From IMG/VR virus record IMGVR_UViG_3300025834_000005: a stretch of 64,000 bases of DNA; one strand, written 5' to 3'. The stretch is from a virus. A model generated the notes under the pieces. It searched no databases and was not told where the DNA came from. It saw only the letters and a list, made by a program, of their open reading frames with translations. Both the position numbers and the translations under genes were made by a program. This document shows, piece by piece, positions 18,532 through 45,871 of this stretch. The stretch's first letter is position 1. Every line of letters starts with the position of its first letter.

Positions 18532-20070
18532 TTATTCAGGTATATTTGAATTTAAATGCGCAACTAATCCGAGTTTATCATTCCATATGAAAGCATCGGC
18601 GGCTTTAACTGCTCCAATGAAACCTTTCTTATGATGCCATTCCTCAGTACCTGTTAATGATGATAAGTAACGTATAATAACGCCTTGTTCCTCATTAATA
18701 ACAGTGTCTCTGTTGAAATCAACGCCATGTCTGTAAGTTTTCTTTCTATGTTGGTGACCTAAATGCCATTCATGAAATCTTGTCTCACTCCACATTTTCT
18801 TAGATTCAATATCATTTGCCATAATTAATGGTAATGATGCTTCTTTTTCTTCGCTACCATGAGTAAAACCAAGTAATACTTCATGATATTTATAATATTT
18901 ACGTGGCGATGCACCGTTATCAATTGTCACCTGTGTGTCGTTATTAAACCATGCTTTTAGAACCGAGCCAAGATAAAAACTTCTTTCAAAGTCGTGATTT
19001 CCAGGGATTACAAGGACATCAATCGGAACTCCTTGTTCTTTCAACAAATAAATTGCGTCAGCTAATAAGGTAACTCCAACCTCAAATGTTTTCTGCCAGC
19101 GTAAATCTTCGTCCTGTTGTGTACCATGAGTTGTTGTATTGTTCATGTTATCACTATTGAAAAAGTCATTGCCGATAGGAAATAGAATACGTTCGTATTT
19201 GAATGTAGAGGCGTGTTTAAGCAACTTATTAATAGCATACATAAAACGTTCACGTGCTATCTTTGTATCGTAATTTTCACCTGTTTCGCCGTTCCAACCT
19301 AATTTTCCAATGTGAAGGTCGAATAAAGATATTTCCAACAAGTTGTGATCCTCATTAGGGTCGTTTGATATTGTTTTTACGTCTACTTGGGGTACGGTGT
19401 ATTTGCTAATTACGCCTTCAATTATTTCACCGACATTAATGGCTTTGAAAAGAGGCATGTTTCTTTCAAGTCTTGCTTTAACTTGAAAATTCTGAGCAGT
19501 AACTGGCGTCATTGTTTTAAATGATGTTACATCCCATTTATTAACAGTATAATCTTTAACAGCCCACATTTCCATATCAACCTCTGCGGCTTTCAATAGT
19601 TCGTCAAGTGTTTTAATATGTCCATTGGGATAGTTACTGCCATTTTTCCAGTCAATATCAGCGACATTCCCCTGTACTTCGAATTTAAGCTGTTCATTAG
19701 TGGCGACAGGTAAATCTGTTGGTTTAGATTGCTTCACATCCTTGTTAAGCGTAATTACTGGACTATATTGTCCAGATGGAACGCCATTAGGACAATATGA
19801 ATTATCTCCATATACAGGCATATTATTCGTAGTAATAGTGGCTTCGATTTTACAGACCTTTTCTAAATATTCATCATACTTATCCATGAATAGTTTATAA
19901 TCTTGCAGTGCTATTGTTTTTTTATTGAATTTATCGATAACCTTACGTTTCACATTTTTAACATATGTATCAGCGTATCCTGATTTGATCGATGCTGTGG
20001 TAAGTGATATGTTATTATTGATTGCGGAATCAATAACCTCAATTCCTTTTAATATTCTATCTCTAATCAT
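18532..20070 (-). CDS. calcineurin-like metallophosphoesterase with ~230-aa N-terminal extension
   Basis: C-terminal half has the full motif set 'LFDLHIGK' (DxH), 'GNDFFNSD' (GDxxD-type), 'IPGNHDFE' (GNHD/E), 'GFTHGSEE' (H), 'HLGHQH' (GHxH). The N-terminal region is unassigned. Confidence 0.75.
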   Translation of the reverse strand: MIRDRILKGIEVIDSAINNNISLTTASIKSGYADTYVKNVKRKVIDKFNKKTIALQDYKLFMDKYDEYLEKVCKIEATITTNNMPVYGDNSYCPNGVPSGQYSPVITLNKDVKQSKPTDLPVATNEQLKFEVQGNVADIDWKNGSNYPNGHIKTLDELLKAAEVDMEMWAVKDYTVNKWDVTSFKTMTPVTAQNFQVKARLERNMPLFKAINVGEIIEGVISKYTVPQVDVKTISNDPNEDHNLLEISLFDLHIGKLGWNGETGENYDTKIARERFMYAINKLLKHASTFKYERILFPIGNDFFNSDNMNNTTTHGTQQDEDLRWQKTFEVGVTLLADAIYLLKEQGVPIDVLVIPGNHDFERSFYLGSVLKAWFNNDTQVTIDNGASPRKYYKYHEVLLGFTHGSEEKEASLPLIMANDIESKKMWSETRFHEWHLGHQHRKKTYRHGVDFNRDTVINEEQGVIIRYLSSLTGTEEWHHKKGFIGAVKAADAFIWNDKLGLVAHLNSNIPE

Positions 20071-26258: not shown

Positions 26259-29200
26259 TTATACTGATGGTGTTAATGTGTCATTGCCGTTTATGTATCC
26301 TAAACCTGTTGAAATCGTGTATGTTAATGTTGCAACACGATCACCACTACTAAGTGCTTTAACAGGATAACCTGTAGAAAGCACAACTGTTGAGGTTGAA
26401 TCGATATTATACGTACTTGTATATCCAGTATTTATAAAATTATATCCAGTACCCGTATCAGCCTGTCTAATCATTGTACCGCCTTTATATAAGGATGCTG
26501 CGACATTTACGGCTGTAGTGCCACTCACGCCATACCAAAATGCTCTCGCATCGACTACAATTGTATCTTCTAACGGATACAATGTTTTAAAATTTATTAA
26601 ATCGATTTTTACAGCCTCAAAACCAATACCCATATTATCGCCACCCCATGTTAGAATTGGAATTCCTGTTGAGGGATAAATAGTCCTTCCTGACCCAGAT
26701 GACCCAGATGGAACGCCCCATCCAAGATAATCTTGCTGAGTTGATTGTCCAATATTAGGACTAACAATTCGAGTCCTTGTATCTAAATCACTACCATCGG
26801 TAAATTGATAGGTTAATACCATATAATCAGCATCAAATACAAATGCGCCAACTATTGTTGAACCTGTTACTGAGCATCCCATACTATCAGTAACCATAAT
26901 CATAATTTCTGATCCACCTGATAAGCCTGTAGATGTGTTAGTTGCCGATGAACTATTTAAAGTATACTGACCAACACTCCAAACATAATCATATGGAGAT
27001 GATCCTCCAACAACTGCTACGGTTGCCGTTCCGTCAGAAGCACCAACAGTGGTTGGGTTTGTTGATGTGAACGATATAGTCATAGGATTACTCACACATG
27101 GCGATACTGTTGTGGTGGTTGTGGTGGTTGTGGTGGTTACAACATCGTCAAGCCATTCGTATAACGGCATAGGCTGTAATTTTTTTATAATACTGCCATC
27201 ATCGCCAAGATATTTGAAATTGTAATCAGTATTAAAAACCGTAGCATTTTCAGTATCGCCAGATAATGCGATCATGCCCATATAAGCACCTCTACGATAA
27301 GCGAATTTCTGTTTCGTAAACATACTGTTTCGAACAATCATGCCACTTTTTCTTAATATAATTGTCGGTGATAATAATTTGTCAACGAATTTATGAAAGA
27401 AAGCATTATATTTGTTAAGGAATGCATATAGATTTGAAAAAGTATAGCCATTGGAGTGATTCAGATCATCAACCTGCGATAGTCCATTTTTTAAATAATC
27501 CAAATAAACTTTCAGCAAAGATGGATACCATCCGCCTTTGCCGTCTGTAATTGTTTTACGATTCTTAGCATTAATTAAATTTTTCTGAGTCTGATCAATA
27601 AAATCCATGAATGATAATTGTGTTATATTATCAATACCGTATACCTTATAGGTATTTAAATAATAAACACTAAAAACGGTATAATGTGCGATTGGTTGTG
27701 TTAACACAATCTTATAAGGATTAGATATATCCATATAATAATCACTATTAACGGCAAGACCAATACCGTTCATCAATATTTTTATATCACTTGGCTTATT
27801 TACCCTGTAATTAATCATTAAAACATACTTACCAATGGTGGTATCGAAGAATACTTTACTATTATCACTTGAGTTATAGTAAAGTATTTCATTATCCATA
27901 TTGACTGTATTATTTGAAACTATCACAAATGTAACCTGAACAATAGGGTCTATAATAAGGTAATCAGTAAAGAATGAATTCAGTATCAGTATCTGCGTAG
28001 GGTCACTCGGATTAATCTTATAATCACCATCAATTCCTGTTCCAGTTCCAGCATTTATCAATTCAATACCGTTAATTGTTAGCTGAACCTTTCCATTAGG
28101 TTCTGATGGTAGTTGTAGAATTGTTCCCACAGCATTTGCAGATACTCTTGTTGAAATATATCTAACAAGTGTATCATTGGCTACCAAACTATTTTTATAG
28201 ATGTATGTTATCTCAACAACATCATCACTTCCAGATACAGGATTGTTTAAAGTAACGACATTTCCAGATAATGAATAGTCAATGTCATATGATGTAGTGC
28301 CAGTATTTCCACTTCTATTGGTACTTAATAGAATACCGTTAAATCTAACCTCAACATCACCCTCTGGCATATAAGGCAACGTAAATACAGTGTCGCTATT
28401 ACTATGATCTAATGATAAATTTATAAAAAAATTAGAATCTGGAATAGCATTTGTTTTAGCATATGAAAACATATCATACTCAATACCTCTGGCAACGTCT
28501 AATCCGACATCGACTTCTTTGGTATTTAAAACAAGTCTACTATCTTCCTGATAATATTGAGGAGTTGACTGATGTGAACGAATTGTCTCGCCAGACTGTA
28601 CCCATGATTTTTTATTATCAATTGTCTGATAAAGATCAAAGCCAGCTTTTCTAAAAACATTCATATAATCCTGTCCACTATCCGTATTACCAGACACCTG
28701 AAAATAGAAGTCATTAGTTTCCAAAGGCGCAACAGGATATCCGTTAACATCAAATGGTAATGAATTCGTAGGATAATTCTGTTTTATTCTTAATGGTGAA
28801 TTTTCTGCGGGGTTAATTTTACCATCAACAGTATAAACATATTCAGTTATATTAATAAATGGCTCAGGAATACCTATAAGTAAAAATATAGACTTGATAG
28901 CATCCCTTGTGCCTTTTGATTTCCAATAATAGTTGGTGTTAATTAAAATTCGTCTCCAAACCTCGATATCTATTTCAAGAGGCAATAAATCGGAATTTAA
29001 ATTTCTTTCCTTATCATCAACAGATAATAAGCTATTCATTAAATCAACCTCATTGGTAATTGGGAAATAATCCCAGCCAAATGTTTGAGCTAAATTTGAA
29101 ACGAATGCATCAGGAACATTGTCCTTCTTATCATATGACACACGATTAACATACTGTAACGAATCCACAAATATTCTGAGTTGATCAAACTCATAGCCAT

Positions 29201-30257
29201 AAGTCCTTAATAATTTAGTGATTTTATTATTATCAGTTAAATCATAAGCTTTTAGTGATGATGTTGTCAAAAATCTGGCAATTAAGTCAGTTTTTATAGC
29301 ATCAAATTTACCGCCAATATTTAATAATGCCTCTAAAAATTGCTTATAAGGCATATTATTTATGTCTATATTATAGCCATCAATGGTAGGCCATATCAAG
29401 TTACTGTTAATATATTCAATCTCGCCATCATCATTTATTGATGGATTATTTACAGTGAATGAAAAACCTTTATCAACCCTCTCTGATAACATATATCTCT
29501 CATAATCCTTCAAGCCAAGTCTATATTCATCGAATACATTAACATTTGGCTTTATATGGAAGTCAAACTTACCATAAGCTGAATTATTTGTAAACTCAAA
29601 AGGATTGCCTTCTGCTGTGATAATTATAAAATCGTTTACAGAATCGTATCCTGTAAAACTTGTTATCTTATATGAATTTTCGGAATTGAATGTAGACCAT
29701 ATTGCGTATTTCTCAAATGATATGCAAACATTACTTAATTCAGTACCTGTATAGTGTGTGCTAAAGTCACTGTTATATGTTAAATTAAATTTACTATCTA
29801 TAACAGATACAGGCACTTTGAAGGTTGAGGTATTGCTTATTGGGTCGAATAAATAATCATAATATGTTACGATTTGACTCCTATCCTTCTGTGAATTAGA
29901 GAACAAGCTACCTGGGAAATTACTGATTATGTTTTGCACAGCAAATCTAAAATACTCATAAGCAGAGCCAAATCTAATATATTTATTTATGTCAGATTTT
30001 TCTAAATTTAATTTTATCTCATTGGTGTTAGAGAAAATTAAATCGGATTGTGTTTTGGTAACGCCGAGGGTCTCCAATGTGATAGGCTTTACGAATCCGC
30101 TCAGCTTATTACTATGATTGACAGTTCTTTTGTTATCGAAATTTGAAGTAACTCTAAACTTACCGAATGAAAAAATGGTTTCAGATGTAATGTTATTAAA
30201 GTTTCCACCATTGACATTCTGATCCTGATTATATGTTAAAACTCTTTTTATAGCCAC
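26259..30257 (-). CDS. giant (1332 aa) baseplate/fibre-associated structural protein with poly-Thr linker and SprB-type repeat; GTG start
   Basis: Uninterrupted 4-kb ORF with start codon GTG (cac at 30255-30257). Has a 10xThr linker, then 'TNPTTVGASDGTATVAVVGGSSPYDYVWS' (SprB-repeat pattern G.sDG..tV.v.GG..PY.Y.WS), then a C-terminal 'DLDTRT...TWGGDN' beta-domain. Confidence 0.6.
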   Translation of the reverse strand: MAIKRVLTYNQDQNVNGGNFNNITSETIFSFGKFRVTSNFDNKRTVNHSNKLSGFVKPITLETLGVTKTQSDLIFSNTNEIKLNLEKSDINKYIRFGSAYEYFRFAVQNIISNFPGSLFSNSQKDRSQIVTYYDYLFDPISNTSTFKVPVSVIDSKFNLTYNSDFSTHYTGTELSNVCISFEKYAIWSTFNSENSYKITSFTGYDSVNDFIIITAEGNPFEFTNNSAYGKFDFHIKPNVNVFDEYRLGLKDYERYMLSERVDKGFSFTVNNPSINDDGEIEYINSNLIWPTIDGYNIDINNMPYKQFLEALLNIGGKFDAIKTDLIARFLTTSSLKAYDLTDNNKITKLLRTYGYEFDQLRIFVDSLQYVNRVSYDKKDNVPDAFVSNLAQTFGWDYFPITNEVDLMNSLLSVDDKERNLNSDLLPLEIDIEVWRRILINTNYYWKSKGTRDAIKSIFLLIGIPEPFINITEYVYTVDGKINPAENSPLRIKQNYPTNSLPFDVNGYPVAPLETNDFYFQVSGNTDSGQDYMNVFRKAGFDLYQTIDNKKSWVQSGETIRSHQSTPQYYQEDSRLVLNTKEVDVGLDVARGIEYDMFSYAKTNAIPDSNFFINLSLDHSNSDTVFTLPYMPEGDVEVRFNGILLSTNRSGNTGTTSYDIDYSLSGNVVTLNNPVSGSDDVVEITYIYKNSLVANDTLVRYISTRVSANAVGTILQLPSEPNGKVQLTINGIELINAGTGTGIDGDYKINPSDPTQILILNSFFTDYLIIDPIVQVTFVIVSNNTVNMDNEILYYNSSDNSKVFFDTTIGKYVLMINYRVNKPSDIKILMNGIGLAVNSDYYMDISNPYKIVLTQPIAHYTVFSVYYLNTYKVYGIDNITQLSFMDFIDQTQKNLINAKNRKTITDGKGGWYPSLLKVYLDYLKNGLSQVDDLNHSNGYTFSNLYAFLNKYNAFFHKFVDKLLSPTIILRKSGMIVRNSMFTKQKFAYRRGAYMGMIALSGDTENATVFNTDYNFKYLGDDGSIIKKLQPMPLYEWLDDVVTTTTTTTTTTVSPCVSNPMTISFTSTNPTTVGASDGTATVAVVGGSSPYDYVWSVGQYTLNSSSATNTSTGLSGGSEIMIMVTDSMGCSVTGSTIVGAFVFDADYMVLTYQFTDGSDLDTRTRIVSPNIGQSTQQDYLGWGVPSGSSGSGRTIYPSTGIPILTWGGDNMGIGFEAVKIDLINFKTLYPLEDTIVVDARAFWYGVSGTTAVNVAASLYKGGTMIRQADTGTGYNFINTGYTSTYNIDSTSTVVLSTGYPVKALSSGDRVATLTYTISTGLGYINGNDTLTPSV
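26975..27100 (-). other. SprB-type repeat unit within the 1332-aa protein
   Basis: The GxSDGxxTVxVxGGxxPYxYxWS pattern is characteristic of the Flavobacterium SprB gliding-adhesin repeat. Confidence 0.55.
27108..27137 (-). repeat. 10 consecutive Thr codons; (tgtggtggt)x3 at 27111-27137
   Basis: ACC ACC ACA repeated on the coding strand. Confidence 0.9.
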
Positions 30258-31245: not shown

Positions 31246-31917
31246 TTATATATTATTAATGATATTAAAAAATCCACCACCCACATATGTCTCAAGCTGT
31301 AATATGCTATCAATATGCTCAAGTCTATAGACAGAGTCGAAAACGCTAATATTTTGACGATCAATAAACACATCACTAATAATATTGGGTTCTGTAGCCA
31401 AACCAACAATTAAATCATCGGTATAAATAATCTCATCGTTAACAACCATTATTCCCATCGTTAATCGCTGATTCATAGCATTACTAAGAGACTCAGCGAA
31501 ATCAGGCGATGTATATCCCATACCCTGAAAATTAGCCACCGTAACATTATTAAGTTTGTTATCGATATATTGGATATTATCAATATAATAAACGATATGA
31601 GTGCCGTCATCTGATACCACGCCAGTACCACCTGTTATCGGTCTGATAATGTAATAGTCACTTAATGTAGCCGCTGTTGCTGGAGCATATTTAGTTAATT
31701 CTGAAAGTCTTGACTGAACAGTAGCTCCCGATATAAAGCATGTTGTACCAGAAAATGATGTTGTGGCTGATAAGGGCGGCTCATTATAAACCAAATCTGT
31801 TGTTAAGCATATATTAAAGCTATAAACAGCATCTAAATCATCAACAAATTTAAAAGTACCGTCGTTATTAAACTCCTGTTTTACTTTCCACAATATTTTC
31901 TTCTTAATCAATTCCAT
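31246..31917 (-). CDS. hypothetical structural-module protein
   Basis: 223-aa ORF with a 1-nt overlap with the Baseplate_J-like gene. Confidence 0.5.
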   Translation of the reverse strand: MELIKKKILWKVKQEFNNDGTFKFVDDLDAVYSFNICLTTDLVYNEPPLSATTSFSGTTCFISGATVQSRLSELTKYAPATAATLSDYYIIRPITGGTGVVSDDGTHIVYYIDNIQYIDNKLNNVTVANFQGMGYTSPDFAESLSNAMNQRLTMGIMVVNDEIIYTDDLIVGLATEPNIISDVFIDRQNISVFDSVYRLEHIDSILQLETYVGGGFFNIINNI

Positions 31918-33752
31918 TAAATATCAGTTCTTTTTCTTAAATACACTCTAATATCCTTTTCAGGGTATTTTATTTCGAACATTGAGTCAGGGTCAGAATA
32001 AATAGCATTGTTAATGATCGTTATTTCGCCTGTAGAGGTGTTAGTAATTGCTTGTGAAACTGGATTTACAGAATAAACTCCGCCAACCTTATTATAAATT
32101 TTCATACTTATAACATTGTTAACGCCGCTAATATTATTTATAGTGTTGTTTAGTTTACCTAAGAATATATCCTCATTCATTTCATGATCATTTATATTAA
32201 AATATGTTGTAACTGCGTTAATAATATTGTTAGCGATCTGATTATCTGATAACGTATTAACGTAAACATCAATATCAATAGCTAAATTGTATATTCTGCC
32301 ATCCTTTATCTCAACATAATCGTTAACCATTCTAAACCCACTTAAATACTCAGCAATATTCTCCTTTAAGATGGTGTTACTGGTGTTAGATAATTTACCG
32401 TCAGAACCAATTCCGATCATACTTGCAACAACCTTATTATTTAATTCATAAACATTTACCCTAAATGGTGAACCGAATTTTCCAGACATCTTATATAATT
32501 GAACAGCATAATCGGATAATCCGACACATCTATTCTGACCTGAATAATTATATCTTACAAGTTCCCTTATCTGTTCTATCGATAATCCGTCATTACCGCC
32601 TATGGCTGCTATTGGGTTATTAACCTTTAAGCTCTTTGAAACAGCTGTATTAAAGTCTTGACGTGATCCATTTGATTTTAAATTGTATGAGCCAAGCTGA
32701 TTTAAAGCACTTGCACCAATATTCGTATCTGAACCACCGCCTGATCTAAACTTAACATATAATGTGTAGTTTTCTTTTAGTTTATCGCCAAGAGCTGTGT
32801 TGTTGAGGAAATTATCGAGAAAACTCTTATTAGTAACGCCATTTTTTATGAATCCATTTTTAAATGTATCGACGTCGCTATCACCAGAACCGAAAATAAT
32901 TCTGCAATAGCCGTCAGATGTAAATTCCTTAATAAATTTCTTATTAATGTCAATCCACATTCCATTCTTTATATCGCCAGTAGATATACTACTATTCTCA
33001 ACAAATATTTTTGGCTGGGCTAAATACTCAACTTCATAATATCTAAATAAGCCAATTGCATCGCCGCTATTAAACTCGTCATTTGTTGGGTTGCTTGGGT
33101 TTGACGTTCCTTCCTTTAATATTATGCTCTCAATTTCGATAATGTCTCTATCAGGTAATGTTACACTGAAAAATGGCACAACGTCAGAGCTATTTATAAC
33201 CCTTTTAAACACTGTTGTTGATCCGTTGATGACTATCTCCCTTTTTGTAATGTTGTAGCTAATTATATTGCCATTTGTGTCGTAATTAGGTATGATCGAT
33301 CTATTAGGGTCACCTAAATTGCTAATTGGCGAACTCCAATCAATAACATCCTGTGTTTCGAATATCTTACCGCCACCCATAATTTGAGCACCTATAGCCA
33401 GAGTTGGGTAATACGATGCATCGGGTTTATCACCCAATACAGGGACATCAACCGAAAAATCGACAATGGTGACTGATGGTCTTTTATTTGGAATATTAAA
33501 TCCCATATTTTTAGCGATATCAATCATAGATTTTCTCAACTGTGCATTCTCAAGAGTAGTTTCCTGATATGCCCTATCAATGTTCATCGATAGGTTATTA
33601 TTAACACCAGCATTAATATCTATAAGCATTGCGCCAACACTCGAATCCATAAAATCACTAAGCACTTCGGGATATTGTTGTTTTATGTATGCTATTAAAT
33701 CGGTTTTGATATCGCCAAATGTTTTACTTGAATATCTTATAATATTTGTCAT
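31917..33752 (-). CDS. baseplate wedge protein, Baseplate_J (T4 gp6 / P2 gpJ)-like
   Basis: N-terminal 'FGDIKTDLIAYIKQQYPEVLSDFMDSSVGAMLIDINAG...LENAQLRKSMIDIAKNMGF' layout resembles Baseplate_J. Sits immediately downstream of the gp25-like gene, the canonical order. Confidence 0.5.
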   Translation of the reverse strand: MTNIIRYSSKTFGDIKTDLIAYIKQQYPEVLSDFMDSSVGAMLIDINAGVNNNLSMNIDRAYQETTLENAQLRKSMIDIAKNMGFNIPNKRPSVTIVDFSVDVPVLGDKPDASYYPTLAIGAQIMGGGKIFETQDVIDWSSPISNLGDPNRSIIPNYDTNGNIISYNITKREIVINGSTTVFKRVINSSDVVPFFSVTLPDRDIIEIESIILKEGTSNPSNPTNDEFNSGDAIGLFRYYEVEYLAQPKIFVENSSISTGDIKNGMWIDINKKFIKEFTSDGYCRIIFGSGDSDVDTFKNGFIKNGVTNKSFLDNFLNNTALGDKLKENYTLYVKFRSGGGSDTNIGASALNQLGSYNLKSNGSRQDFNTAVSKSLKVNNPIAAIGGNDGLSIEQIRELVRYNYSGQNRCVGLSDYAVQLYKMSGKFGSPFRVNVYELNNKVVASMIGIGSDGKLSNTSNTILKENIAEYLSGFRMVNDYVEIKDGRIYNLAIDIDVYVNTLSDNQIANNIINAVTTYFNINDHEMNEDIFLGKLNNTINNISGVNNVISMKIYNKVGGVYSVNPVSQAITNTSTGEITIINNAIYSDPDSMFEIKYPEKDIRVYLRKRTDI

Positions 33753-33766
33753 TGTATATTTTTATA

Positions 33767-34159
33767 TTAAAATTTTAATGTTAGGGTATCGGGTTCTGAA
33801 AATGTATCGTCCATATACACGAAGCTGATATTAACAACTATCTGGTCATCGCTGAGAGAATTATCTGTGTCTGATCTTGAAAATGTCACACTCTTAATTG
33901 TTATATTCGGCATGTATTTGGATACAGTCCTTTTTATTTCCTCCAGAATATCTGTCGCTGTTGTGTCGTCATTAGGCTCAAACAAATATTTTTCTAAGTT
34001 TGTGCCATAGTCTGAATCATAATATCTCTCGCCTTTTTGGGTTAACAGTAATAACATTAAATCGGAAGTATACGCATCCTTTGTCACTCTGTTTAATTCA
34101 AAAAAGGTATTAGTAATATTATTATCAATAATTGGAAATTTTATGTTATATGCACCCAT
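33767..34159 (-). CDS. baseplate wedge protein, GPW/gp25-like
   Basis: 'LMLLLLTQKGERYYDSDYGTNLEKYLFEPNDDTTATDILEEIKRTVSKYMPNITI' matches the gp25 family pattern T.kGER...p.fG..l..llFeP........i...i...l..yeP.i. Size of 130 aa is typical. Confidence 0.7.
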   Translation of the reverse strand: MGAYNIKFPIIDNNITNTFFELNRVTKDAYTSDLMLLLLTQKGERYYDSDYGTNLEKYLFEPNDDTTATDILEEIKRTVSKYMPNITIKSVTFSRSDTDNSLSDDQIVVNISFVYMDDTFSEPDTLTLKF

Positions 34160-35659: not shown

Positions 35660-36598
35660 TTATCTTACCTCTTTTATTTCTTTTACCATGAACTTAAACA
35701 CATCATAAATGTTATCGTCATTCTTATCTTTAGTTGTGATTCTCTTTACAAAGCTATGGATTTTATAGCCTATAAGTTTACCATAAGTATCCTTTACAAA
35801 CACTTGATCAATATTTATAAGGTCTTTAACTATTTTAGAGTCATCAGCAAGTTTAATCGAGCCGTATTTAGCTGGTATGAAAAATTCAAGCCTAAGCAAT
35901 TCGCTCCCAATTGTTTTCACATGCATAATCTCTGTCAGCTGTTCAATCTTATTCAATGTTTCGGTTTCCCTGAGACATTTTATAGGGAATTCAAGTTGTT
36001 TGGATAATGTTGGGGCGTCATTTAGGATGAATTTATCAGCTTCAACTTCTGTCATAATATCCACAGATTTTGAGAATCCGATTTCAAACGGAGTATTATT
36101 ATAAATATACTCAATCTGATATTCATCGTCATCTGTTCGTCTATCATTATACTCGCCGTTTATAACCTCTTCAAGGGTTTTGCCTGAATTCTTGTTTTTT
36201 TCATCGAAAAAACCAAAATGTTCATATCTACGACCCCATTTATCCTTTTTACCGAAATTCATACCATGACGGTCAGTTGCCGCTGCAACCTGAAAAGGTG
36301 TGGATTTCTTTCTAAATTCATCGCTTTTCTTTAGAATCTCGTAGTACTCTTTAGTGTATTTCTCGTCCTCAGTACCATTATAGAACGATTCAAGTGTGTT
36401 ATTTCTATGACGATGTCTTTGTATCTTTTTATAACCCTCAGATACAGCGTGATCGATTGGTTTAAAAATTAGCTCATCGGCATAGCTTAATGCCATGCCG
36501 ATTCTAATTGCTATACTGTAAAATATATTTCTAATCCAATTAATCATTTTTTGTTGCGATTTTTTTATAAATCTCGACTCGTTTATTTGTAACGTCAA
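35660..36598 (-). CDS. hypothetical protein
   Basis: 312-aa ORF. The listed start overlaps the GT gene by 59 nt. The alternative ATG at 36547 gives an 8-nt ATGATTAA overlap. Confidence 0.5.
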   Translation of the reverse strand: MTLQINESRFIKKSQQKMINWIRNIFYSIAIRIGMALSYADELIFKPIDHAVSEGYKKIQRHRHRNNTLESFYNGTEDEKYTKEYYEILKKSDEFRKKSTPFQVAAATDRHGMNFGKKDKWGRRYEHFGFFDEKNKNSGKTLEEVINGEYNDRRTDDDEYQIEYIYNNTPFEIGFSKSVDIMTEVEADKFILNDAPTLSKQLEFPIKCLRETETLNKIEQLTEIMHVKTIGSELLRLEFFIPAKYGSIKLADDSKIVKDLINIDQVFVKDTYGKLIGYKIHSFVKRITTKDKNDDNIYDVFKFMVKEIKEVR

Positions 36599-37910
36599 TC
36601 AAATTGAAAGCAGTTTTAAAGTCGTTATGCAGTTGAGTTCCTAACTTCTCTCTAAGGTCTTTATCGAGAATAAGTCTCTTTAAATACTTAGCCCAAAATT
36701 TATTTGAGTTCTTTTGCGATGGAATCAAAATACAATTCTCCATATGTCTGCCATCAACATTATATGTTGGAATATCACTACATACAATTGGTAAACCCCT
36801 TGTCCAACACTCAACCTGTTTAAGATTCGATTTCATTCTGTTAAACAGGTTATCGGCTAATGGTGCTATAACAATATCTGTCTCATTTAACACATTTGCA
36901 TAAACATTAACCTTTTGAGTCCATCTTCTTGCATAATTACCCTCATTAGGATAGGTGTGATTCCTATCATATTTTTTCAAAAATGATAGATATTCCTTAT
37001 CCTTAATAATTCTATTATTATCTGTCAATATTTCCTCATAAAGATAATACGATGATTCTTGAGGTGTGATAGGTCTTTCTGTTTTCACAAAAACATTTTC
37101 AGGATACTTATCCCTTAATTCTTGTGGTAACTCATTAATATCAGAAATATCACCCTTATTAGCATTAATAAGCTTAATAATCTTATTATTATATAATTTA
37201 CGTTCTTGAAGTTCTTTACCGAATTCCTGATTGAATTTAATATCGGTTTGATTGCCATTAATGTCCCAGCCAGCCAAAATGATCTTAAACTTATCCTTTG
37301 TCAAGGAATCAGCATTTAAAATGTTTACCACGCCATTTAATTGAGTTAAATCGCCATGATGTGAAGAGCCACCCATATAAGTTATTCTGATTTTACCATC
37401 AGGGTCGGGTGTCCTGTTATTAACAAATTGATCCATAGATGTTGGGTCAACTGAATTAGGAATCACAAATACATTATCCTTTCCACTTAATTTTCGCAAT
37501 TCGACAGCGAATAATTCAGTTGTCGTTGTGACATAATCAGCATTCTTTACAGCAAGTTCGATATACTGTTGAAGTCTGTTATGTATATAAAAGTCATGCA
37601 AAGGATGTGATTCGGGTAATTGCCAGAAGTCATCAACGTCTAATATAAGTACAGTACCAGCTTCTTTTAAAGCCTTACGGAAACTTGGGTATTTTCTTGG
37701 GTTATATAATTCTTTATGATAATGAATTATATCAAACGACGTAAGATAATCTATAATGTTTGGTTCTTCAAAATTAATATTAGGATTAATTTCTACTATA
37801 AACTCATCACTATGATTTCTATCAACCTCCATTGCTGGGGTCAGGGTTCTATAATAATTAATGCCTGCGACATCGGTATTATAAAACAGTATTTTTAGCT
37901 TTTTTTCCAT
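36540..37910 (-). CDS. GT-B fold (group-1-like) glycosyltransferase
   Basis: N-terminal 'KILFYNTDVAGINYYR', central 'ITYMGGSSHHGDL', and C-terminal 'IAPLADNLFNRMKSNLKQVECWTRGLPIVCSDIPTY' resembling the GT1 E/K-x7-E-type donor-binding helix and G-x-P-v-i-x-s block. Confidence 0.5.
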   Translation of the reverse strand: MEKKLKILFYNTDVAGINYYRTLTPAMEVDRNHSDEFIVEINPNINFEEPNIIDYLTSFDIIHYHKELYNPRKYPSFRKALKEAGTVLILDVDDFWQLPESHPLHDFYIHNRLQQYIELAVKNADYVTTTTELFAVELRKLSGKDNVFVIPNSVDPTSMDQFVNNRTPDPDGKIRITYMGGSSHHGDLTQLNGVVNILNADSLTKDKFKIILAGWDINGNQTDIKFNQEFGKELQERKLYNNKIIKLINANKGDISDINELPQELRDKYPENVFVKTERPITPQESSYYLYEEILTDNNRIIKDKEYLSFLKKYDRNHTYPNEGNYARRWTQKVNVYANVLNETDIVIAPLADNLFNRMKSNLKQVECWTRGLPIVCSDIPTYNVDGRHMENCILIPSQKNSNKFWAKYLKRLILDKDLREKLGTQLHNDFKTAFNLIDVTNKRVEIYKKIATKND

Positions 37911-38317: not shown

Positions 38318-39112
38318 TTAAAATCCTTGTATTAATATTTCACCGTATTTGATTCCATCAAATCCATATTTTTTAGCCTTTTCAGCGATTGCTTTACATT
38401 TCAAATTAAACTCACTAATATTATTCTCTTGTGAAATAGCATTAAAGTTTACATGAGGAAACCATATCCTCGCTAATACATCCACAGGATTCTGACTGCT
38501 TTTATAAGAGACACCCAATTTATCAGTATCTAAAATATTGTCGAACTCAATTTCATATTTTTTCATACCCTCTTTAGGTGATAATGTGAAAAAATTGCCG
38601 TTAGTTGAATTATCCTTAAAATTATCTTTACGATAACCTATAAGTTTAACAACGTTCATCGAATCGCCGTCAATATCAGCCTCCTCAATAGTACCCTCAA
38701 TAGAATCTAAAAAACTATTCGGAACATTGCTATTCTCAGCTTCCTTTTGTTGATCGTAATCATATATATCCTGTATTTTATTTAAAAGTCTACAAGCATT
38801 TTTATGATCAAGGTCTACAAGTACGGCTTTAATAGTTTTCTTACCAGCATATAGCGACTTAACAAGTCTATGATGACCATCGAGAACGAATAATTCATTA
38901 TTAATCCAAATAGGATTTTCATCGTCATCGATATTTGCATCATCAACCTCATGTGAAAAAGTAATACCCTGTAAAGCTTTTAATATTGAAGGATTGATGT
39001 CAATAATTCTACCGTTCACCCCTTCAGCACCAAGTTTATCGATAACGATATCAAATGGAGCATTTACTTGAGGTAAATACGATGGTCTATGTTGCATGTC
39101 TATTGTACTCAT
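38318..39112 (-). CDS. ParB/sulfiredoxin-like N-terminal domain protein with C-terminal half resembling the ART-like module of the neighbouring giant protein
   Basis: 'FVLDGHHRLVKSLYAGKKTIKAVLVDL' is the DGxHR core of ParB-like nuclease domains. C-terminal 'GNFFTLSPKEGMKKY' and 'KKYGFDGIKYGE' parallel 'GIYFTESEEEAHMYG' and 'SKLGFDGQLINKEYGG' in ORF 39138-43361. Confidence 0.55.
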   Translation of the reverse strand: MSTIDMQHRPSYLPQVNAPFDIVIDKLGAEGVNGRIIDINPSILKALQGITFSHEVDDANIDDDENPIWINNELFVLDGHHRLVKSLYAGKKTIKAVLVDLDHKNACRLLNKIQDIYDYDQQKEAENSNVPNSFLDSIEGTIEEADIDGDSMNVVKLIGYRKDNFKDNSTNGNFFTLSPKEGMKKYEIEFDNILDTDKLGVSYKSSQNPVDVLARIWFPHVNFNAISQENNISEFNLKCKAIAEKAKKYGFDGIKYGEILIQGF

Positions 39113-39137
39113 GATTATAAATAGTTACTTTTTAAAT

Positions 39138-42100
39138 TTAAACTGGTACTTCCGTAACACGTCCTATTAGAAATAGAGGTTTACGATAAGGTATCCATTT
39201 TTTCAGATCATTTGACATTTTCGCAGTTGCCCCATTATTATCGTTTACAGCAAGAGTTATATGTCTATTATCATTAATAGACCCGAATCCAGAGACGCCA
39301 ACAGCCATAACATTTTCATCAATGGCATAACTCTCGACCTTTAATCTAAGTGTATATCCTAAATATTTCTCATAAAAACTGTCAATCTCTCCGAAATTAA
39401 TTGTCATATGATCACATATAAGTTCAGTGCCACCAGAGGCATTTGTTCTATATTGATTATAATCATCTGGAATCAAATCAGCGAAAGCGTTGCGTAATTT
39501 ATTGATTGATTTATCATCAAGAACAACGGCTGAATATTTTACAAGCTTTTTCTTACTCATTGGGTTTACGGAACTTAGTTCATTAACAGACTCCTCAACA
39601 AATTTATCGTTGGGTTTTACAAATTTATAAAAATCTGGATAATAATTATATTGAGGATTTCTTTTTTTAAAATTTCTTAAATTAGCTATTAACGAGCCAT
39701 CATTCTCATACTCATCATTCATTATCTCATATTGAGCATCACCTAAGCCAAATCCATTGGTTAGACCGATCCTATGCATCAACGTGTATTTTTTTAAGTT
39801 CTCTGTTGAGTAAATCTCGTTACCGCTTGTAAACAATCCAATATTCTCAGCCATTCTTGAATGCGTAAAATATTTATCCTGTAGAGCAACGTAAATGTTA
39901 CCGCTTGGGTCACCAATTGCTCGAACGTCAGCATCAAAATTAGCCAATGATCGTGGATTCTTATATATCGCAATACGATCACTTTTAGTGTCTAAAACAT
40001 ATGCCATAGGCTTTTCTTCCTGTGTCTGCAAATGTGTTTTATACTCTTTTTCAAATTCATCATCCTGATCAGGAATTCCGAATTTATTTGCAGCATATTT
40101 ATCGCCAACGCCTTCTTGGGTAATCTTGGTATCGTTAATTGGTTTATTATCGCTCTTAATATCTAAAAAATATCTATCATAATACCTAAACTGTGAGTTT
40201 TTTTGAATCAGTTTTTTAAATATCTTCAACATAACTATTCTACGATCACTTTCGTCAGCATTTACATAACTACTGGTTGTATCGCTAAGTCCGAATGTAT
40301 TAGTATTACCAACACGATTAAGAAGTAAAAATCGATCAAGATTATCATAAAAACTATCATCGGTAACAGCAAATTTTAAAGCTACCGCCATTTCGCCATG
40401 AATGAAATTACCATTCTTCTGAGCAACATAAATATTACCATAAACATCAGCAATGGCACGTGTAGATTGATCAAAATTACTTAAAGATTGCGGATTTTTA
40501 TATATCCCCACATTTTCACGTATATTATTTACATTATCATAATTTTTAACATATGCTACAGGTTTTTCAGACATTAGTAGGTTATGAAGCTTATAATCCT
40601 TTTCAAACTCGTCATCAGGGTCTGGGATACCAAATTTCTTTTCAGCGTATTTATCTCCGACGCCCTCTTGTTCAAGAGATTCCTGTAAGTTAAAGTTTTC
40701 GCTTGTAGCGTCAGGAACTTTACTAACCATATTTGTAATAGTAATTATAGCTGGATTATACGCTATAATATGTCTAACGCCACCATATTCCTTATTAATT
40801 AGTTGTCCATCAAAACCCAGCTTTGACATGCCTTGAATAAATAATCTGGGCTGATGTCTAAAAAAATCAACCCATATTTGTTGGTATAAATCCTTCTCGT
40901 TATCAGCGTACTCTGACATCATTGAAATCGCTTTAGCAAGTCCTCTGTTTGGGTTTATATCATAATTCTGAGCATCTTCCTTCCATTGAGGAGACATTTT
41001 AATTAAAGATGACATCATAGAGACCGATACAACCTTCTTATTTGCTGCGTTCGTCATCTTACGAGGTCTTAATACAACAGAATAAATATATTCACCATAC
41101 ATATGAGCCTCTTCTTCGGATTCGGTGAAGTAAATTCCAGGGCCTTCTTGATCGGTTGCATTTTCCTTACCGACAAATTCATCAGTAAACTTATCAAATT
41201 TATGCTTACTACCATGATACATAACATATTCGCCACCTTTTATAGTTTCATTTAAAGGTTCATCAGTACCATCTGGTGTGGGTTTATTATCAGAACTAAT
41301 GTATTTTAAAATATCCTCACGATTATTTTTCAGCTTATCAGTGTATATCTTCAATAAAATTTCCTTAAATTTATTCTTTATTTGTTCACCCCTAAAACCA
41401 AGATTCATAAGATCATTACCGTTTACAGGTAAATCTGCATTTGACTTTGGATACTTACCTGACAATAATTCGTCGCAAGCCATTTTTATAGACTTAGGTA
41501 TTATGTTTGACTTTAAAGACTCTGGATATGTTGCGTACATATTATAAGCAATTGATCTGGCTTTATATATGTTTACAGTATTGCCCTCTGAATCGAATGC
41601 AAACTTCAATGCTTTTATTTCCTTATAGGTGTTTATCTCACCACGCAATTTAGTTTTATAGAATTCATCGGGAGCATCTATAGTGTCGCCAATTAACAGG
41701 TAAATAAATTCGCCCATTGTTTTAGCATTCCTAAATAACTCAGCCTTAGAATTGAAATCAACCATTGGGTTAACTCCGAATAATTGTTTGTATATACCTG
41801 TCTCAACCAAAAGATTTGCACCGATTAAATGATCGCCCTTTTGGACTATTTTATCGAATTCAGTTAATATTCTCTCTGATGGTATTTCTCTTATCTTCGA
41901 AACGCTACCCTGAATAGCTTTCATGGTTTCAGGTTCGATTGTAAAACCAAATCTTGAAGCCATCTGAACAGCACGAAGCATACGCAAAGGGTCTTCGGTA
42001 AAAGCCGAAGGATCGACCATTCGAATAATTTTATTACGAATATCATCAACACCGCCAAAAGGGTCAATAACATTACCCTCAATATCGTTAGCTATCGCAT

Positions 42101-43361
42101 TGATTGTTAGGTCACGTCTACGTAAATCATCCTCAATTGGTAATGCATGATCTGATTTTGTCTCAATGCCCTTATGACCACCAGCACCTGTTGCTGTGTC
42201 GGTTCGTGGTATAGCAACATCAATATCCTCTGTACTACCAGTTGGTTTGAATTTCAGAACTCCAAATGATTTGCCCACAAGGTTTACTTGTCCATATTTA
42301 CCAAGTATCTGTTCAAGAGTGTCCATAGGAACGCCTGTGATCATAATATCAAGGTCTTTAGACTCTTTACCTAAATATTTATCACGCACAGCACCGCCAA
42401 CAGAGTATATCTTTCCGCCGAGCTTATTAATCTCAGCAGTGAAAGGTATTTGATCTAAACTATATATTTCGGCTTCATTCAAACTATTACCACTGGTTAT
42501 ATGCGCTTCCAATTCTTTTTTTAGCTCATCAAAATAAAAATCAATGCTTTCACCATCAAGGTCTGTGAAATTACCGTTAACGTCTCTGGCGATTCCGCCA
42601 TTATCATCCCTTTTAAAATATTTATGAATCCAGCCTTGCTGAGACATCATTCCTAAATGATTAACCTTCTGCTGTATTTCGTCAACATAATCGGATAATA
42701 CCATATTACCATTTCTATAGCCAAATTCACGAATAGCTTTAATATCTTTAGCCATTTCTATTTTAAAAGCAGGTAAATCCCTGTTTTTCACGGCAATCTC
42801 CAAAGGCTCTAACAATTTTAAAACCATTTCACTGAATTCGCTATCGCTTGGGTCTACAGATTCGTCAATCGGATTCTTTTTAAAACGAGACTTAATATAA
42901 TTGTTAATAGATTTATCGGTATAGCCAAGTAATTTACCCACTTCCACAGCCTCTTCTGGTGTTGTATCAGCAGCATAGCCATTATGAGCATTCATGTGAT
43001 CACGAAGCTTTAACGCATTTGCCTTATTAGTATAAATAATAAATGATTTTGTACCGTCCTTTCTAATGATAGGAATCGCATTAATGTTATGCATTGATAA
43101 ATTATTCCTAACATCAGCATCAAGATTATTCATAAGTAATAATCCCACGTCTCGTTTACCGTTTATTAATGTATTTACAGTTCCATCAGCACCGTAAGCC
43201 TCACTTGCATCAATTTCCTCATTAACAATTGAACTAATTTTCAGATTGTTCATATCACCCTGATTACATGCGGCAGATTTACCGTTAAGTTTCCCTAACT
43301 TGCATTTATCTTTAACCTCAACTGTTGAGCTATTTTTCATCCAAGATATAATTCTTTTCAT
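39138..43361 (-). CDS. 1407-aa multi-domain 'polyvalent' protein: unknown N-domain + class-II tRNA nucleotidyltransferase + ART-like module + 2 x unknown repeat domain + 2H phosphoesterase
   Basis: Single uninterrupted ORF. Domain motifs are listed in the sub-features below. Confidence 0.8.
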   Translation of the reverse strand: MKRIISWMKNSSTVEVKDKCKLGKLNGKSAACNQGDMNNLKISSIVNEEIDASEAYGADGTVNTLINGKRDVGLLLMNNLDADVRNNLSMHNINAIPIIRKDGTKSFIIYTNKANALKLRDHMNAHNGYAADTTPEEAVEVGKLLGYTDKSINNYIKSRFKKNPIDESVDPSDSEFSEMVLKLLEPLEIAVKNRDLPAFKIEMAKDIKAIREFGYRNGNMVLSDYVDEIQQKVNHLGMMSQQGWIHKYFKRDDNGGIARDVNGNFTDLDGESIDFYFDELKKELEAHITSGNSLNEAEIYSLDQIPFTAEINKLGGKIYSVGGAVRDKYLGKESKDLDIMITGVPMDTLEQILGKYGQVNLVGKSFGVLKFKPTGSTEDIDVAIPRTDTATGAGGHKGIETKSDHALPIEDDLRRRDLTINAIANDIEGNVIDPFGGVDDIRNKIIRMVDPSAFTEDPLRMLRAVQMASRFGFTIEPETMKAIQGSVSKIREIPSERILTEFDKIVQKGDHLIGANLLVETGIYKQLFGVNPMVDFNSKAELFRNAKTMGEFIYLLIGDTIDAPDEFYKTKLRGEINTYKEIKALKFAFDSEGNTVNIYKARSIAYNMYATYPESLKSNIIPKSIKMACDELLSGKYPKSNADLPVNGNDLMNLGFRGEQIKNKFKEILLKIYTDKLKNNREDILKYISSDNKPTPDGTDEPLNETIKGGEYVMYHGSKHKFDKFTDEFVGKENATDQEGPGIYFTESEEEAHMYGEYIYSVVLRPRKMTNAANKKVVSVSMMSSLIKMSPQWKEDAQNYDINPNRGLAKAISMMSEYADNEKDLYQQIWVDFFRHQPRLFIQGMSKLGFDGQLINKEYGGVRHIIAYNPAIITITNMVSKVPDATSENFNLQESLEQEGVGDKYAEKKFGIPDPDDEFEKDYKLHNLLMSEKPVAYVKNYDNVNNIRENVGIYKNPQSLSNFDQSTRAIADVYGNIYVAQKNGNFIHGEMAVALKFAVTDDSFYDNLDRFLLLNRVGNTNTFGLSDTTSSYVNADESDRRIVMLKIFKKLIQKNSQFRYYDRYFLDIKSDNKPINDTKITQEGVGDKYAANKFGIPDQDDEFEKEYKTHLQTQEEKPMAYVLDTKSDRIAIYKNPRSLANFDADVRAIGDPSGNIYVALQDKYFTHSRMAENIGLFTSGNEIYSTENLKKYTLMHRIGLTNGFGLGDAQYEIMNDEYENDGSLIANLRNFKKRNPQYNYYPDFYKFVKPNDKFVEESVNELSSVNPMSKKKLVKYSAVVLDDKSINKLRNAFADLIPDDYNQYRTNASGGTELICDHMTINFGEIDSFYEKYLGYTLRLKVESYAIDENVMAVGVSGFGSINDNRHITLAVNDNNGATAKMSNDLKKWIPYRKPLFLIGRVTEVPV
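39141..39548 (-). other. domain: 2H phosphoesterase-like (two HxT motifs), aa ~1272-1407
   Basis: 'LICDHMTINFG' and 'DNRHITLAVND' are spaced ~49 aa apart in a ~135-aa C-terminal domain, the H-x-T/S-x duplication that defines LigT/CPDase/Acb1-type 2H enzymes. Confidence 0.6.
39627..40118 (-). repeat. internal protein-domain duplication, copy B (aa ~1082-1245)
   Basis: 'EGVGDKYAANKFGIPDQDDEFEKEYKTH..EKPMAYV..IYKNPRSLANFDADVRAIGDPSGNIYVA..'. Period ~183 aa relative to copy A. Confidence 0.8.
40164..40670 (-). repeat. internal protein-domain duplication, copy A (aa ~898-1066)
   Basis: 'EGVGDKYAEKKFGIPDPDDEFEKDYKLH..EKPVAYV..IYKNPQSLSNFDQSTRAIADVYGNIYVA..'. Confidence 0.8.
40752..41234 (-). other. 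domain: ART-like (polyvalent-protein ADP-ribosyltransferase-type) module, aa ~710-870
   Basis: 'VMYHGSKHKFDKFTDEF..GPGIYFTESEEEAHMYGEYIYSV' and the distal 'GFDGQLI..GGVRHIIAYNP' fit my recollection of the H-G-S/T ... G-x-Y-F-T ... pattern of ART domains found in phage polyvalent proteins. Confidence 0.4.
41292..42462 (-). other. domain: complete class-II nucleotidyltransferase (CCA-adding enzyme / poly(A) polymerase family), aa ~300-690
   Basis: 'GGAVRDKYLGKESKDLDIMITG' (GGxVRD...DxD), 'RRDLTINAIA', 'EDPLRMLRAVQMASRFGF', and tail-domain-like 'LPVNGNDLMNLGFRGEQIKNKFKEILLKIYTDKLKNNREDILKYI'. Confidence 0.8.
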
Positions 43362-45169: not shown

Positions 45170-45871
45170 TTATTTATAATTTGTAAAACATATTGATATA
45201 TACTCAATTAAATTTGGAACAGTCTCCATTTTTTGTATCTCTTGCATTGTATACCATCCATATGCTGTATGTTCGCCATTTAATTTAACATCCGAATCAT
45301 CGCCATTAAAACGATCAGCGAATATATGCTCGACATTTAACACATCGTCATATGTTCTTTCAATTGTTAATCTTTTTATAATATTGTCAAGTTTAATTCC
45401 AGTTTCCTCATAAACCTCACGTTTACATGCATCCTCTGGTGATTCATCATCCTCTATTTTACCGCCAGCCAAACCATATTTACCAGCAGCCCAACAGTTC
45501 TCGCCTCTTTTTAAAAGCAGAAATTTATTATCCTTATTGGCGATAACACCGAGTGCATTCTCCTGTTTGTTTAAGTTTTCAGATTCATTTAAAGCACCTA
45601 TATTAATCTTTCTTGCTGAATTTAGACTATTATCAACATATTTTTGCATGTCAACGCCACCAGCTAATAAATATTGAACATCATTAGCACCCATTCCAGC
45701 CATATCATGTTTGAGCCTTTTTAATGCTTGGTATGTTAATGTCCTATTTTTTAGAATATACTTAGCCCTACGAATCCCATCGCTGTCAGGATATCTTGTA
45801 ATCGCAGCACTGATGATATTTAAAACATCTTTAGGTACTACGAAATTTTTGCCGTATAGTTCACTATTCAT
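45170..45871 (-). CDS. Nudix hydrolase with ~100-aa N-terminal extension
   Basis: Nudix box 'GGKIEDDESPEDACKREVYEETGI' (Gx5Ex7REUxEExGU). Confidence 0.8.
   Translation of the reverse strand: MNSELYGKNFVVPKDVLNIISAAITRYPDSDGIRRAKYILKNRTLTYQALKRLKHDMAGMGANDVQYLLAGGVDMQKYVDNSLNSARKINIGALNESENLNKQENALGVIANKDNKFLLLKRGENCWAAGKYGLAGGKIEDDESPEDACKREVYEETGIKLDNIIKRLTIERTYDDVLNVEHIFADRFNGDDSDVKLNGEHTAYGWYTMQEIQKMETVPNLIEYISICFTNYK

Follow-up and report, generated by a model that had tools for sequence, protein, structure and literature searches.

What does a phage gain by chaining a tRNA nucleotidyltransferase to an RNA-end phosphoesterase, with further modules in front of and between the two, in one very large polypeptide? 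The question is raised by a 64,000-nt stretch of viral DNA (IMG/VR record IMGVR_UViG_3300025834_000005, ~32% G+C; hereafter the window, at its full length), in which an open reading frame (ORF) of 1407 residues occupies positions 39138..43361 of the minus strand from its ATG start through the stop codon, and is followed after a gap of 25 nt by the ATG-started gene of a 264-residue two-domain protein (38318..39112, minus strand), the N-terminal half of which may be related to ParB and sulfiredoxin (Srx). From N to C terminus the giant protein holds a module that we call N1, a linker, a CCA-adding type nucleotidyltransferase, an ART-PolyVal ADP-ribosyltransferase (ART) module, two copies of a repeat domain R and a 2H phosphoesterase. 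We are confident of these domain assignments, and with moderate confidence we propose, from sequence comparison, that the protein is a predicted enzyme for healing and rebuilding tRNA 3' ends, to which effectors have been added.

Both ORFs, which lie within a long run of minus-strand genes, are present as given in a preliminary description of this DNA. A 1407-codon open frame at this G+C content cannot have arisen by chance, and a protein identical to the giant protein is on record (P0001, 1400 residues, called from Met8) on a 328,453-bp metagenomic contig. Met1 at position 43361 is the likelier start because Arg3 is conserved among the homologues. No Shine-Dalgarno sequence was found at the start of either ORF, and the starts examined across the 64-kb window are likewise without a sequence of this kind.

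The core of the giant protein is a class II tRNA nucleotidyltransferase of the CCA-adding type (residues 306-695; 41277..42446, minus strand), composed of a head, a neck and a diverged body/tail. The head matches Pfam PF01743 (PolyA_pol) with an E-value of 5.5e-24 and covers the entire profile (positions 1-126 of 126), the neck matches PF12627 (PolyA_pol_RNAbd, 2.7e-14), and in PHROGs the giant protein matches phrog_2244 'tRNA nucleotidyltransferase' at 4.5e-63. Among solved structures the CCA-adding enzyme 1miv comes closest (3.9e-26), and its catalytic motifs are aligned with those of the module: motif A (G322-G-A-V-R-D followed by D336-L-D338) falls on GGAVRD...DVD of 1miv, while motifs B (RRD), D and E, contained in DLRRRDLTINA, EDPLRMLRAV and ERILTEFDK, line up with both 1miv and 6ibp. 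The class II assignment made in the preliminary description is thus well founded, motifs A to E being found and the DxD residues aligned with the catalytic positions of 1miv. The body/tail is matched only weakly by PF13735 in the window (E 0.0056, 17.1 bits against a cut-off of 27, residues 639-687), and better in the relative P0031, where tRNA_NucTran2_2 is matched at 2.2e-5 over profile positions 13-148 of 149. No other part of the giant protein approaches this module in conservation (48-62% identity). Profile scans of the whole protein and of its segments detected no HD phosphohydrolase domain.

The C-terminal domain (residues 1265-1407; 39141..39569, minus strand) is predicted to be a compact 2H phosphoesterase of the type that acts as a cyclic phosphodiesterase (CPD) on RNA ends, nearer to CNPase and the CPD of tRNA ligases than to Acb1. 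Its two HxT motifs, which had been noticed at the outset, are H1318-M-T and H1367-I-T; both histidines and both threonines are invariant in 17/17 homologues, and both motifs are located at strand starts in an AlphaFold model of 2H fold (E240-245 and E289-295 of the model; predicted local distance difference test, pLDDT, 89). The Pfam family tRNA_lig_CPD matches 17 of the 18 members of this 2H type (best 2.7e-8); the window copy itself scores below the cut-off (20.7-20.9 bits vs 23), and P0042 passes it with 25.2 bits. The alignment profile of the domain returned only noise against PDB sequences, and a fold search was needed to confirm the domain. Foldseek placed the catalytic domains of CNPase on top in the PDB (E 1.7e-5, probability 1.0), with LigT at rank 50, and in BFVD it retrieved a CroV protein (8e-8) and a Marseillevirus 'RNA ligase' (1e-5), followed by two Acb1 proteins at ranks 12 and 19 (E 0.012 and 0.049). 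The Acb1 family model matches none of the 18 members. That CNPase, tRNA-ligase CPD and giant-virus RNA-ligase matches all come ahead of Acb1 favours repair of tRNA 3' ends over the Acb1-like activity that the preliminary description had entertained as an alternative; for the 2H type of the window, with no Acb1 match in Pfam and an Acb1 fold match of no better than E 0.012, the latter is disfavoured.

How far this combination of enzymes holds in the family was examined in the best 120 homologues of the giant protein (P0001-P0120), to which the counts out of 120 refer. They are 826-2405 residues long, on contigs of up to 357 kb. Local mapping finds the CCA module in all 120, at least one 2H domain in 87, GNAT in 28, HAD_SAK_1 in 4 and NUDIX in 2, and the order of the modules around the CCA core is shuffled from one relative to another. 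The union of a CCA enzyme with a 2H phosphoesterase had been put forward as not described; we indeed found no paper describing it, but in this large metagenomic family it is the rule. Among the 2H-bearing relatives, the CPD type is found in 63 and an Acb1/LigT-like type, which matches the Pfam models Acb1 (PF23474) and 2_5_RNA_ligase2, in 39, with both present in 15; for the second type an Acb1-like role is plausible. HAD_SAK_1, described as 'HAD domain in Swiss Army Knife RNA repair proteins', is fused in P0117 and is encoded by a neighbouring gene beside P0059, and NUDIX is fused in P0009 and P0017. Neither an RNA ligase nor a polynucleotide kinase occurs in any of the 120 architectures.

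The linkage is also seen at the level of the locus. From IMG/VR, 80 loci were fetched via the ParB-like gene, of which 68 had enough upstream DNA, and a CCA ORF lies upstream of that gene on the same strand within 6 kb in 64 of these 68. The giant and ParB-like genes are direct neighbours in only 4/64 loci, whereas linkage within 6 kb is general. A 2H domain is found in 33 of the 48 distinct complete CCA ORFs of these loci, and some genomes have two genes in place of the giant one, one of them containing N1 and the other encoding either a CCA-2H protein (530-720 residues) or a solo CCA enzyme (~400 residues). A set of 50,697 GenBank phage records contains no near-identical DNA and no full-length relative; in the same set the ParB-like protein, N1, R and 2H gave no tblastn match, the matches of PolB were remote only, and homologues in cultured phages are confined to the CCA and ART modules, the nearest phage CCA enzyme being a solo one of 394 residues (LR756504). 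The giant protein can be seen as the form taken in this phage by a multi-enzyme that is core to an uncultured clade with genomes of roughly 220-365 kb, yet hypervariable within it.

The constant CCA core, the frequent fusion to 2H, the HAD and NUDIX add-ons and the lack of ligase and kinase together point to healing and rebuilding of the tRNA 3' terminus, and the last of these argues for 3'-end repair rather than repair of anticodon-loop breaks. The repair scheme sketched in the preliminary description is favoured on these grounds, and by the RNA-end type of the 2H domain, HAD_SAK_1 in relatives and the stand-alone CCA-2H proteins. The substrate would be tRNA 3' ends and the steps would probably follow one another as set out here. 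The 2H domain would open the 2',3'-cyclic phosphate left at tRNA 3' termini by metal-independent nucleases, as expected of its CNPase/tRNA-ligase-CPD type. The remaining 2'-phosphate would then be cleared by another activity, perhaps that of the ART module, if it works with NAD+ as Tpt1/KptA does, or that of the R repeats or of a phosphatase supplied by the host; in relatives a HAD phosphatase may stand in for it. A phage route of this kind, from 2H to a 2'-phosphate and on to a KptA-type ART that uses NAD+, has been described (PMC9503650), and by analogy ART-PolyVal might fill the KptA-like step, with which the location of its solo homologues inside phage tRNA gene clusters (see below) would agree. 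Last, the CCA enzyme would put back the C-C-A residues that had been trimmed off, and phage proteins could go on being translated. A RuvC-type nuclease such as Cas12a3 leaves a free 3'-OH end, and ends of this sort would need the last step only. N1, ART-PolyVal and the R repeats would be add-on modules, and the whole would have a role in counter-defence.

Several observations weigh against this proposal. No phosphatase is recognisable in the giant protein itself, which leaves the passage from 2H product to CCA substrate without an enzyme, and about half of the protein (N1, the linker, R1 and R2) is without an assigned activity. The ART module, a candidate for the missing step, is found in just 19/120 relatives, and the targets predicted for its clade are proteins, not RNA (PMC5512222). 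Specificity for CCA, for A only or for poly(A) is not readable from the sequence because poly(A) polymerases score nearly as well, 3aqm (4e-24) falling within two orders of magnitude of 1miv. There are also no tRNA genes in the 64-kb window.

The ART-PolyVal module extends over residues 700-885 (40707..41264, minus strand) and passes the gathering score of its Pfam family, in agreement with its first description as ART-like (PF18760, 33.9 bits vs 31.2, residues 709-871); it also matches phrog_25279 (1.2e-21). The motifs 'yHGs', 'GIYFt' and 'LGyDG' are kept in 15 aligned copies, and with them H716 (in 'YHGS'), Y744 (in 'GIYFT') and D851 (in 'LGFDG'), a candidate catalytic triad that would fit the H-Y-D active-site configuration of the clade. 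Such a configuration, on strands 1, 2 and 5, is described for the Tox-ART-HYD2 clade (PMC5512222). In cultured phages, solo homologues of the module (~200-230 residues, 30-33% identity) are GAP32_436 of Cronobacter phage GAP32 and CPT_Munch_453 of Salmonella phage Munch, both located within the tRNA gene clusters of these 350-kb genomes; in Xanthomonas phage XaC1 the homologue adjoins a virion structural protein, with NUDIX genes nearby.

Between the ART and 2H modules stand the two tandem copies of one domain that had been recognised before, R1 (residues 895-1078; 40128..40679, minus strand), an alpha/beta domain that opens with E-GVGDKYAEKKFGIPD, and R2 (residues 1079-1258; 39588..40127, minus strand). 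The copies are 43% identical (E 6e-46), and the domain is present in 1-5 copies in 56-60 of the 120 relatives. The AlphaFold model of R2 together with 2H has a pLDDT of 89.2, with the R block mostly above 90. Residues N1135, P1136, G1154, H1167, R1197 and F1204 are kept in 28/28 copies, R1147 in 28/30 and D1151 in 27/28. The identity of R was sought in Pfam (E up to 10), in PHROGs, by a profile search of PDB sequences and by tblastn in cultured phages, in all cases with no match, and hhalign revealed no relationship of R to ART, N1, 2H or the C-terminal half of the ParB-like protein. No fold match to R appeared among the 50 matches listed per library (PDB and BFVD), the model having included 2H, whose matches filled the lists.

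The first ~300 residues had been reported to be free of any recognisable motif. A Pfam scan of residues 1-305 indeed gives no strong match, but residues 2-175 (42837..43358, minus strand) form a conserved module, N1, in which a Cys-x11-Cys-N-Q-G-D motif precedes what is predicted to be an NleE-like fold. N1 is present in 114-118 of the 120 relatives (118 by local mapping), with C20, C32 and N33 invariant and Q34, G35 and D36 kept in at least 90%. The top Foldseek match of its AlphaFold model (pLDDT 78.5) in the PDB is NleE itself (4r29; E 1.7e-3, probability 1.0, TM score 0.44-0.47). The Pfam NleE model stays below threshold for the window copy (E 0.018, 15.1 bits), reaches 27.3 bits against a cut-off of 27 in the homologue P0028, and matches 8 of 27 members. 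In many relatives another domain, for example GNAT, is inserted between the Cys motif and the NleE-like core. The linker that follows (residues 176-305; 42447..42836, minus strand) is without a Pfam match and is lineage-specific: leaving aside the identical P0001, it is covered by 28 relatives at residue 177 and by none by residue 217. It ends with L294-N-E296 just ahead of the CCA module.

Other explanations were weighed as well. One would be housekeeping tRNA maturation, in which the CCA enzyme completes phage or host tRNAs that lack an encoded CCA and keeps up the tRNA pool through a long jumbo-phage infection, with the fused modules as passengers. Solo CCA enzymes are indeed common in jumbo phages (PMC7824862; 506 phage records were matched), the closest GenBank match is likewise a solo enzyme, some members of the clade have nothing more than a solo CCA enzyme at this locus, and the CCA module leads all others in conservation. 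Maturation alone would leave unexplained why a cyclic phosphodiesterase is fused in 72% of relatives, why HAD, NUDIX, ART and GNAT gather on one polypeptide, and why the architecture is shuffled as rapidly as is typical of conflict genes, and we consider it unlikely. Were the 2H domain the decisive part, it could hydrolyse the cyclic oligonucleotide messengers of CBASS or type III CRISPR, with the ART modifying a host protein and the CCA enzyme working independently. Acb1 does have a 2H-type fold and is represented twice among the viral fold matches, the second 2H type, present in 39 relatives, matches the Acb1 and 2_5_RNA_ligase2 models, and Iyer et al. propose that polyvalent 2H domains act on nucleotide signals or as RNases and not in ligase-coupled repair (PMC5512222). 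The 2H type of the window, however, matches tRNA_lig_CPD alone in Pfam and never Acb1, its fold E-values for CNPase and giant-virus RNA ligase are 3-5 orders better than for Acb1, and the coexistence of both types in single proteins of 15 relatives suggests that they have different jobs; signal degradation by the window protein is, in our estimate, very unlikely. Hardly any probability is given by us to the view that the nucleotidyltransferase is a poly(A) or poly(C) polymerase that serves host takeover, marking host RNAs for decay or blocking tRNA acceptor ends in a MenT-like manner. The near-equal scores of bacterial poly(A) polymerases and the divergence of the body/tail, which dictates the substrate, would allow it, and some toxins are nucleotidyltransferases that lengthen the acceptor ends of tRNAs (PMC11541572). 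The top matches are nonetheless CCA enzymes, phrog_2244 among them, the tail in relatives matches tRNA_NucTran2_2 over nearly its whole length, and fusion to end-healing enzymes suits repair more than damage.

A further possibility concerns delivery and is compatible with repair: the giant protein may be a late polyprotein that is packaged in the head and that the prohead protease cleaves at [LIVMF]-x-E, releasing modules that enter the cell with the DNA. This motif occurs at a fixed offset before each of the five module types (N1 79/107, CCA 47/100, ART 12/27, R 39/62 and 2H 23/55, that is, 42-74% of module copies), mostly in the form phi-N/D/T-E, compared with a background of 2.7% per position and 3-5% at the best single offset in controls. 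In the giant protein the candidate sites are L-N-E296, L-N-E705 and V-N-E1260, with E-Q-E899 and T-Q-E1083 in the corresponding places before the R repeats. The prohead proteases of T4, phiKZ, 201phi2-1 and SPN3US cut after Glu in a three-residue motif (PMC5694885), which makes processing of a packaged polyprotein conceivable. Packaging is also in line with the listing of ART-PolyVal and 2H as components of polyvalent proteins, which ParB-like genes accompany (PMC5512222), with the wide shuffling and copy-number variation of modules in the family, and with the position of the gene ~5 kb upstream of same-strand baseplate wedge genes; packaged ARTs of the T4 Alt type are likewise associated with baseplate genes (PMC5512222). 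Against this, neither the window protein nor the domains of the 120 relatives revealed a MuF domain, a portal fusion, a zincin metallopeptidase or a capsid-targeting sequence, no prohead protease was identified in the window, and the giant gene comes directly after the replication genes DnaB, SNF2 and PolB. The junction motif, which runs into a helix in the model, may equally be a conserved structural N-cap, and the -3 residue at the R repeats of the window protein is E or T, not hydrophobic. We therefore treat packaging as a tentative possibility, with the balance somewhat against it. Its combination with repair, in which a capsid-loaded polyprotein cut at [LIVMF]-x-E would deliver a ready tRNA-tail repair kit (2H, a phosphate-clearing ART or R, and CCA) and so pre-empt immunity that cuts CCA ends (Cas12a3 or HEPN-type), seems to us quite doubtful. 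If true, it would make the polyprotein the 'yet unknown means of resistance' (PMC12851939) and a cleavage-based solution to the delivery of polyvalent proteins without a built-in metallopeptidase.

The neighbouring 264-residue protein is far more conserved than the giant protein, with 346 homologues of ~271 residues at 47-78% identity. Its ParB/sulfiredoxin core, as named in the preliminary description, stands as far as the motif goes: in DGHHR (residues 78-82; 38867..38881, minus strand), D78, G79 and H81 are invariant and H80 and R82 are kept in at least 90% of 30 homologues. Profile support for the name is below threshold, however, with ParBc_2 at E 0.023 (15.3 bits vs 23.6; 2/30 members match) and phrog_620 'ParB-like' at 6.7e-4, and there is no match among PDB sequences. 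A search of 1.84 billion representative proteins shows the two halves to be independent domains that occur separately. The DGHHR half is elsewhere fused to Zeta-toxin/AAA_33 P-loop kinases, a LigD-type 3'-phosphoesterase and a cytidylyltransferase (P0350, P0351, P0363 and P0333), partners more suggestive of chemistry on nucleotides or nucleic-acid ends than of chromosome partitioning. The C-terminal half (residues 150-264) occurs elsewhere in proteins without a Pfam match. Its proposed origin as a paralogue of the ART module found no statistical backing and has been dropped: BLASTP gives E 0.044 over 38 residues, hhalign gives P 0.008 with a probability of 4.9% over 16 columns that cover the shared 'GyDG' motif alone, and 0/30 members match the ART-PolyVal model. 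Four short motifs are collinear between the two, and there may be homology, at most very remote.

In the window, nearly all genes are on the minus strand from 5.4 kb onward and the GC skew is steadily negative. The giant gene is placed between the replication genes and the baseplate wedge genes, in an order shared by the four genomes examined: SNF2, PolB, one further gene, NUDIX, three small genes, the giant gene, optional inserts and the ParB-like gene, and then, after about five genes, the gp25/gp6-like baseplate wedge. The NUDIX hydrolase gene of this syntenic block (45170..45871, minus strand; phrog_1198, 4e-19), which lies upstream of the giant gene by four genes, has a Pfam NUDIX match in 4/4 genomic contexts examined and is 39-40% identical to the NUDIX modules fused N-terminally in P0009 and P0017; by virtue of these fusions a functional link between the NUDIX neighbour and the giant protein is likely. 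On contig JAKQOL010000224.1 (12928-16185) five extra genes lie between the giant and ParB-like genes, among them those of an ArdC-N-like protein (weak Pfam match) and a stand-alone HAD_SAK_1 phosphatase, from which it appears that this slot takes in further conflict or repair genes. No terminator-like site was found between the giant gene and the baseplate genes, where a scan for promoters and terminators is uninformative in such AT-rich DNA.

Downstream of the ParB-like gene, a 456-residue glycosyltransferase-like gene (36540-37910, minus strand; phrog_7162, 3.7e-42) and a TTG-started ORF of 312 residues (35660-36598, minus strand) overlap by 59 nt; the TTG start is probably too far upstream because the gene call on the source contig is 295 residues. 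The baseplate block consists of gp25-like and gp6-like wedge subunits (33767-34159 and 31917-33752, minus strand) and then a GTG-started ORF of 1332 residues (26259-30257, minus strand). Only the last 180 residues of this ORF match a PHROG, of unknown function, and it may encode a fibre or baseplate protein. Further downstream are the genes of an SbcC-like protein (1116 residues; 12792-16142, minus strand), the N-terminus of which also matches a metallo-phosphoesterase PHROG, and of an SbcD/Mre11-like protein (512 residues; 18532-20070, minus strand).

tRNA is a major known target of anti-phage immunity. A 2026 report describes Cas12a3, which cuts the universal CCA tail of tRNAs, an attack that viral tRNAs cannot bypass and to which the viral answer is unknown according to its authors (PMC12851939). 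A protein of an uncultured jumbo-phage clade that keeps a fixed slot, is rapidly reshuffled and joins a CCA enzyme to end-healing activities would be a testable candidate for this answer. Also of interest in this family are two widespread modules, R and the NleE-like N1, found in company that points to RNA-end chemistry, the possibility that a subfamily of ART-PolyVal acts on RNA, and what may be a protease-site grammar by which a phage polyprotein releases its modules. Should the giant protein do no more than housekeeping as a CCA enzyme, its other domains being passengers, it would be of modest interest.

Among known systems, the closest in function is the CCA enzyme of E. coli, the HD domain of which removes 2',3'-cyclic phosphate in the repair of 3'p-tRNAs (PMC6961547) and which is a direct precedent for the scheme proposed here. 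In both cases one polypeptide combines a class II CCA enzyme, with homologous head and neck, and a phosphoesterase for 2',3'-cyclic phosphate ends. The phosphoesterase of the giant protein has the unrelated 2H fold and not that of HD, so that this resemblance is functional only, and the giant protein is phage-encoded, more than three times longer, variable in architecture and equipped with NleE-like, ART-PolyVal and R modules. CPD of the fungal and plant tRNA ligase Trl1 and vertebrate CNPase, which open 2',3'-cyclic phosphates to 2'-phosphates (PMC9503650), share the 2H fold and the two HxT motifs and are the best Pfam and solved-fold matches; the window domain is much shorter (~140 residues, HxT motifs 49 residues apart) and is without a ligase or kinase partner. 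The 'Swiss Army Knife' RNA repair proteins and T4 Pnk-Rnl likewise combine several RNA-end-healing activities against tRNA damage, a likeness underlined by HAD_SAK_1 in relatives, whereas the CCA family has no ligase or kinase and would address the 3' terminus, not anticodon-loop breaks. As for N1, the NleE/OspZ cysteine methyltransferase effectors are its best fold match and their Pfam cut-off is reached in P0028, but identity is ~20%, the TM score is ~0.45, and an additional Cys-x11-Cys-NQGD segment precedes the putative core.

In its construction the giant protein most resembles the phage polyvalent proteins of Iyer, Burroughs, Anand, de Souza and Aravind (2017). Like these, it chains unrelated catalytic domains (CCA nucleotidyltransferase, ART-PolyVal, 2H and NleE-like), includes both 2H and ART-PolyVal, the commonest modifying domain of the class, adjoins a ParB/Srx-like gene, has GNAT in its relatives and is extremely shuffled. 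Unlike these, it is devoid of the hub domains (zincin metallopeptidase, MuF, SNF2, methylase and ArdC-N). ART, 2H, GNAT and ParB are all listed in that work and a CCA-type enzyme is not (PMC5512222); the Pol-beta nucleotidyltransferases that do appear there are all minimal forms from conjugative elements, with proteins as their predicted targets (PMC5512222). A survey of jumbo phages mentions solo CCA enzymes only (PMC7824862), and in the literature we found neither a description of CCA-centred giant proteins nor an already characterised protein with this architecture, as the preliminary description had supposed. It is already known that a CCA enzyme can be joined to a phosphoesterase for cyclic phosphates and that phages use several enzymes together in RNA repair, and what is new is the giant protein family centred on CCA.

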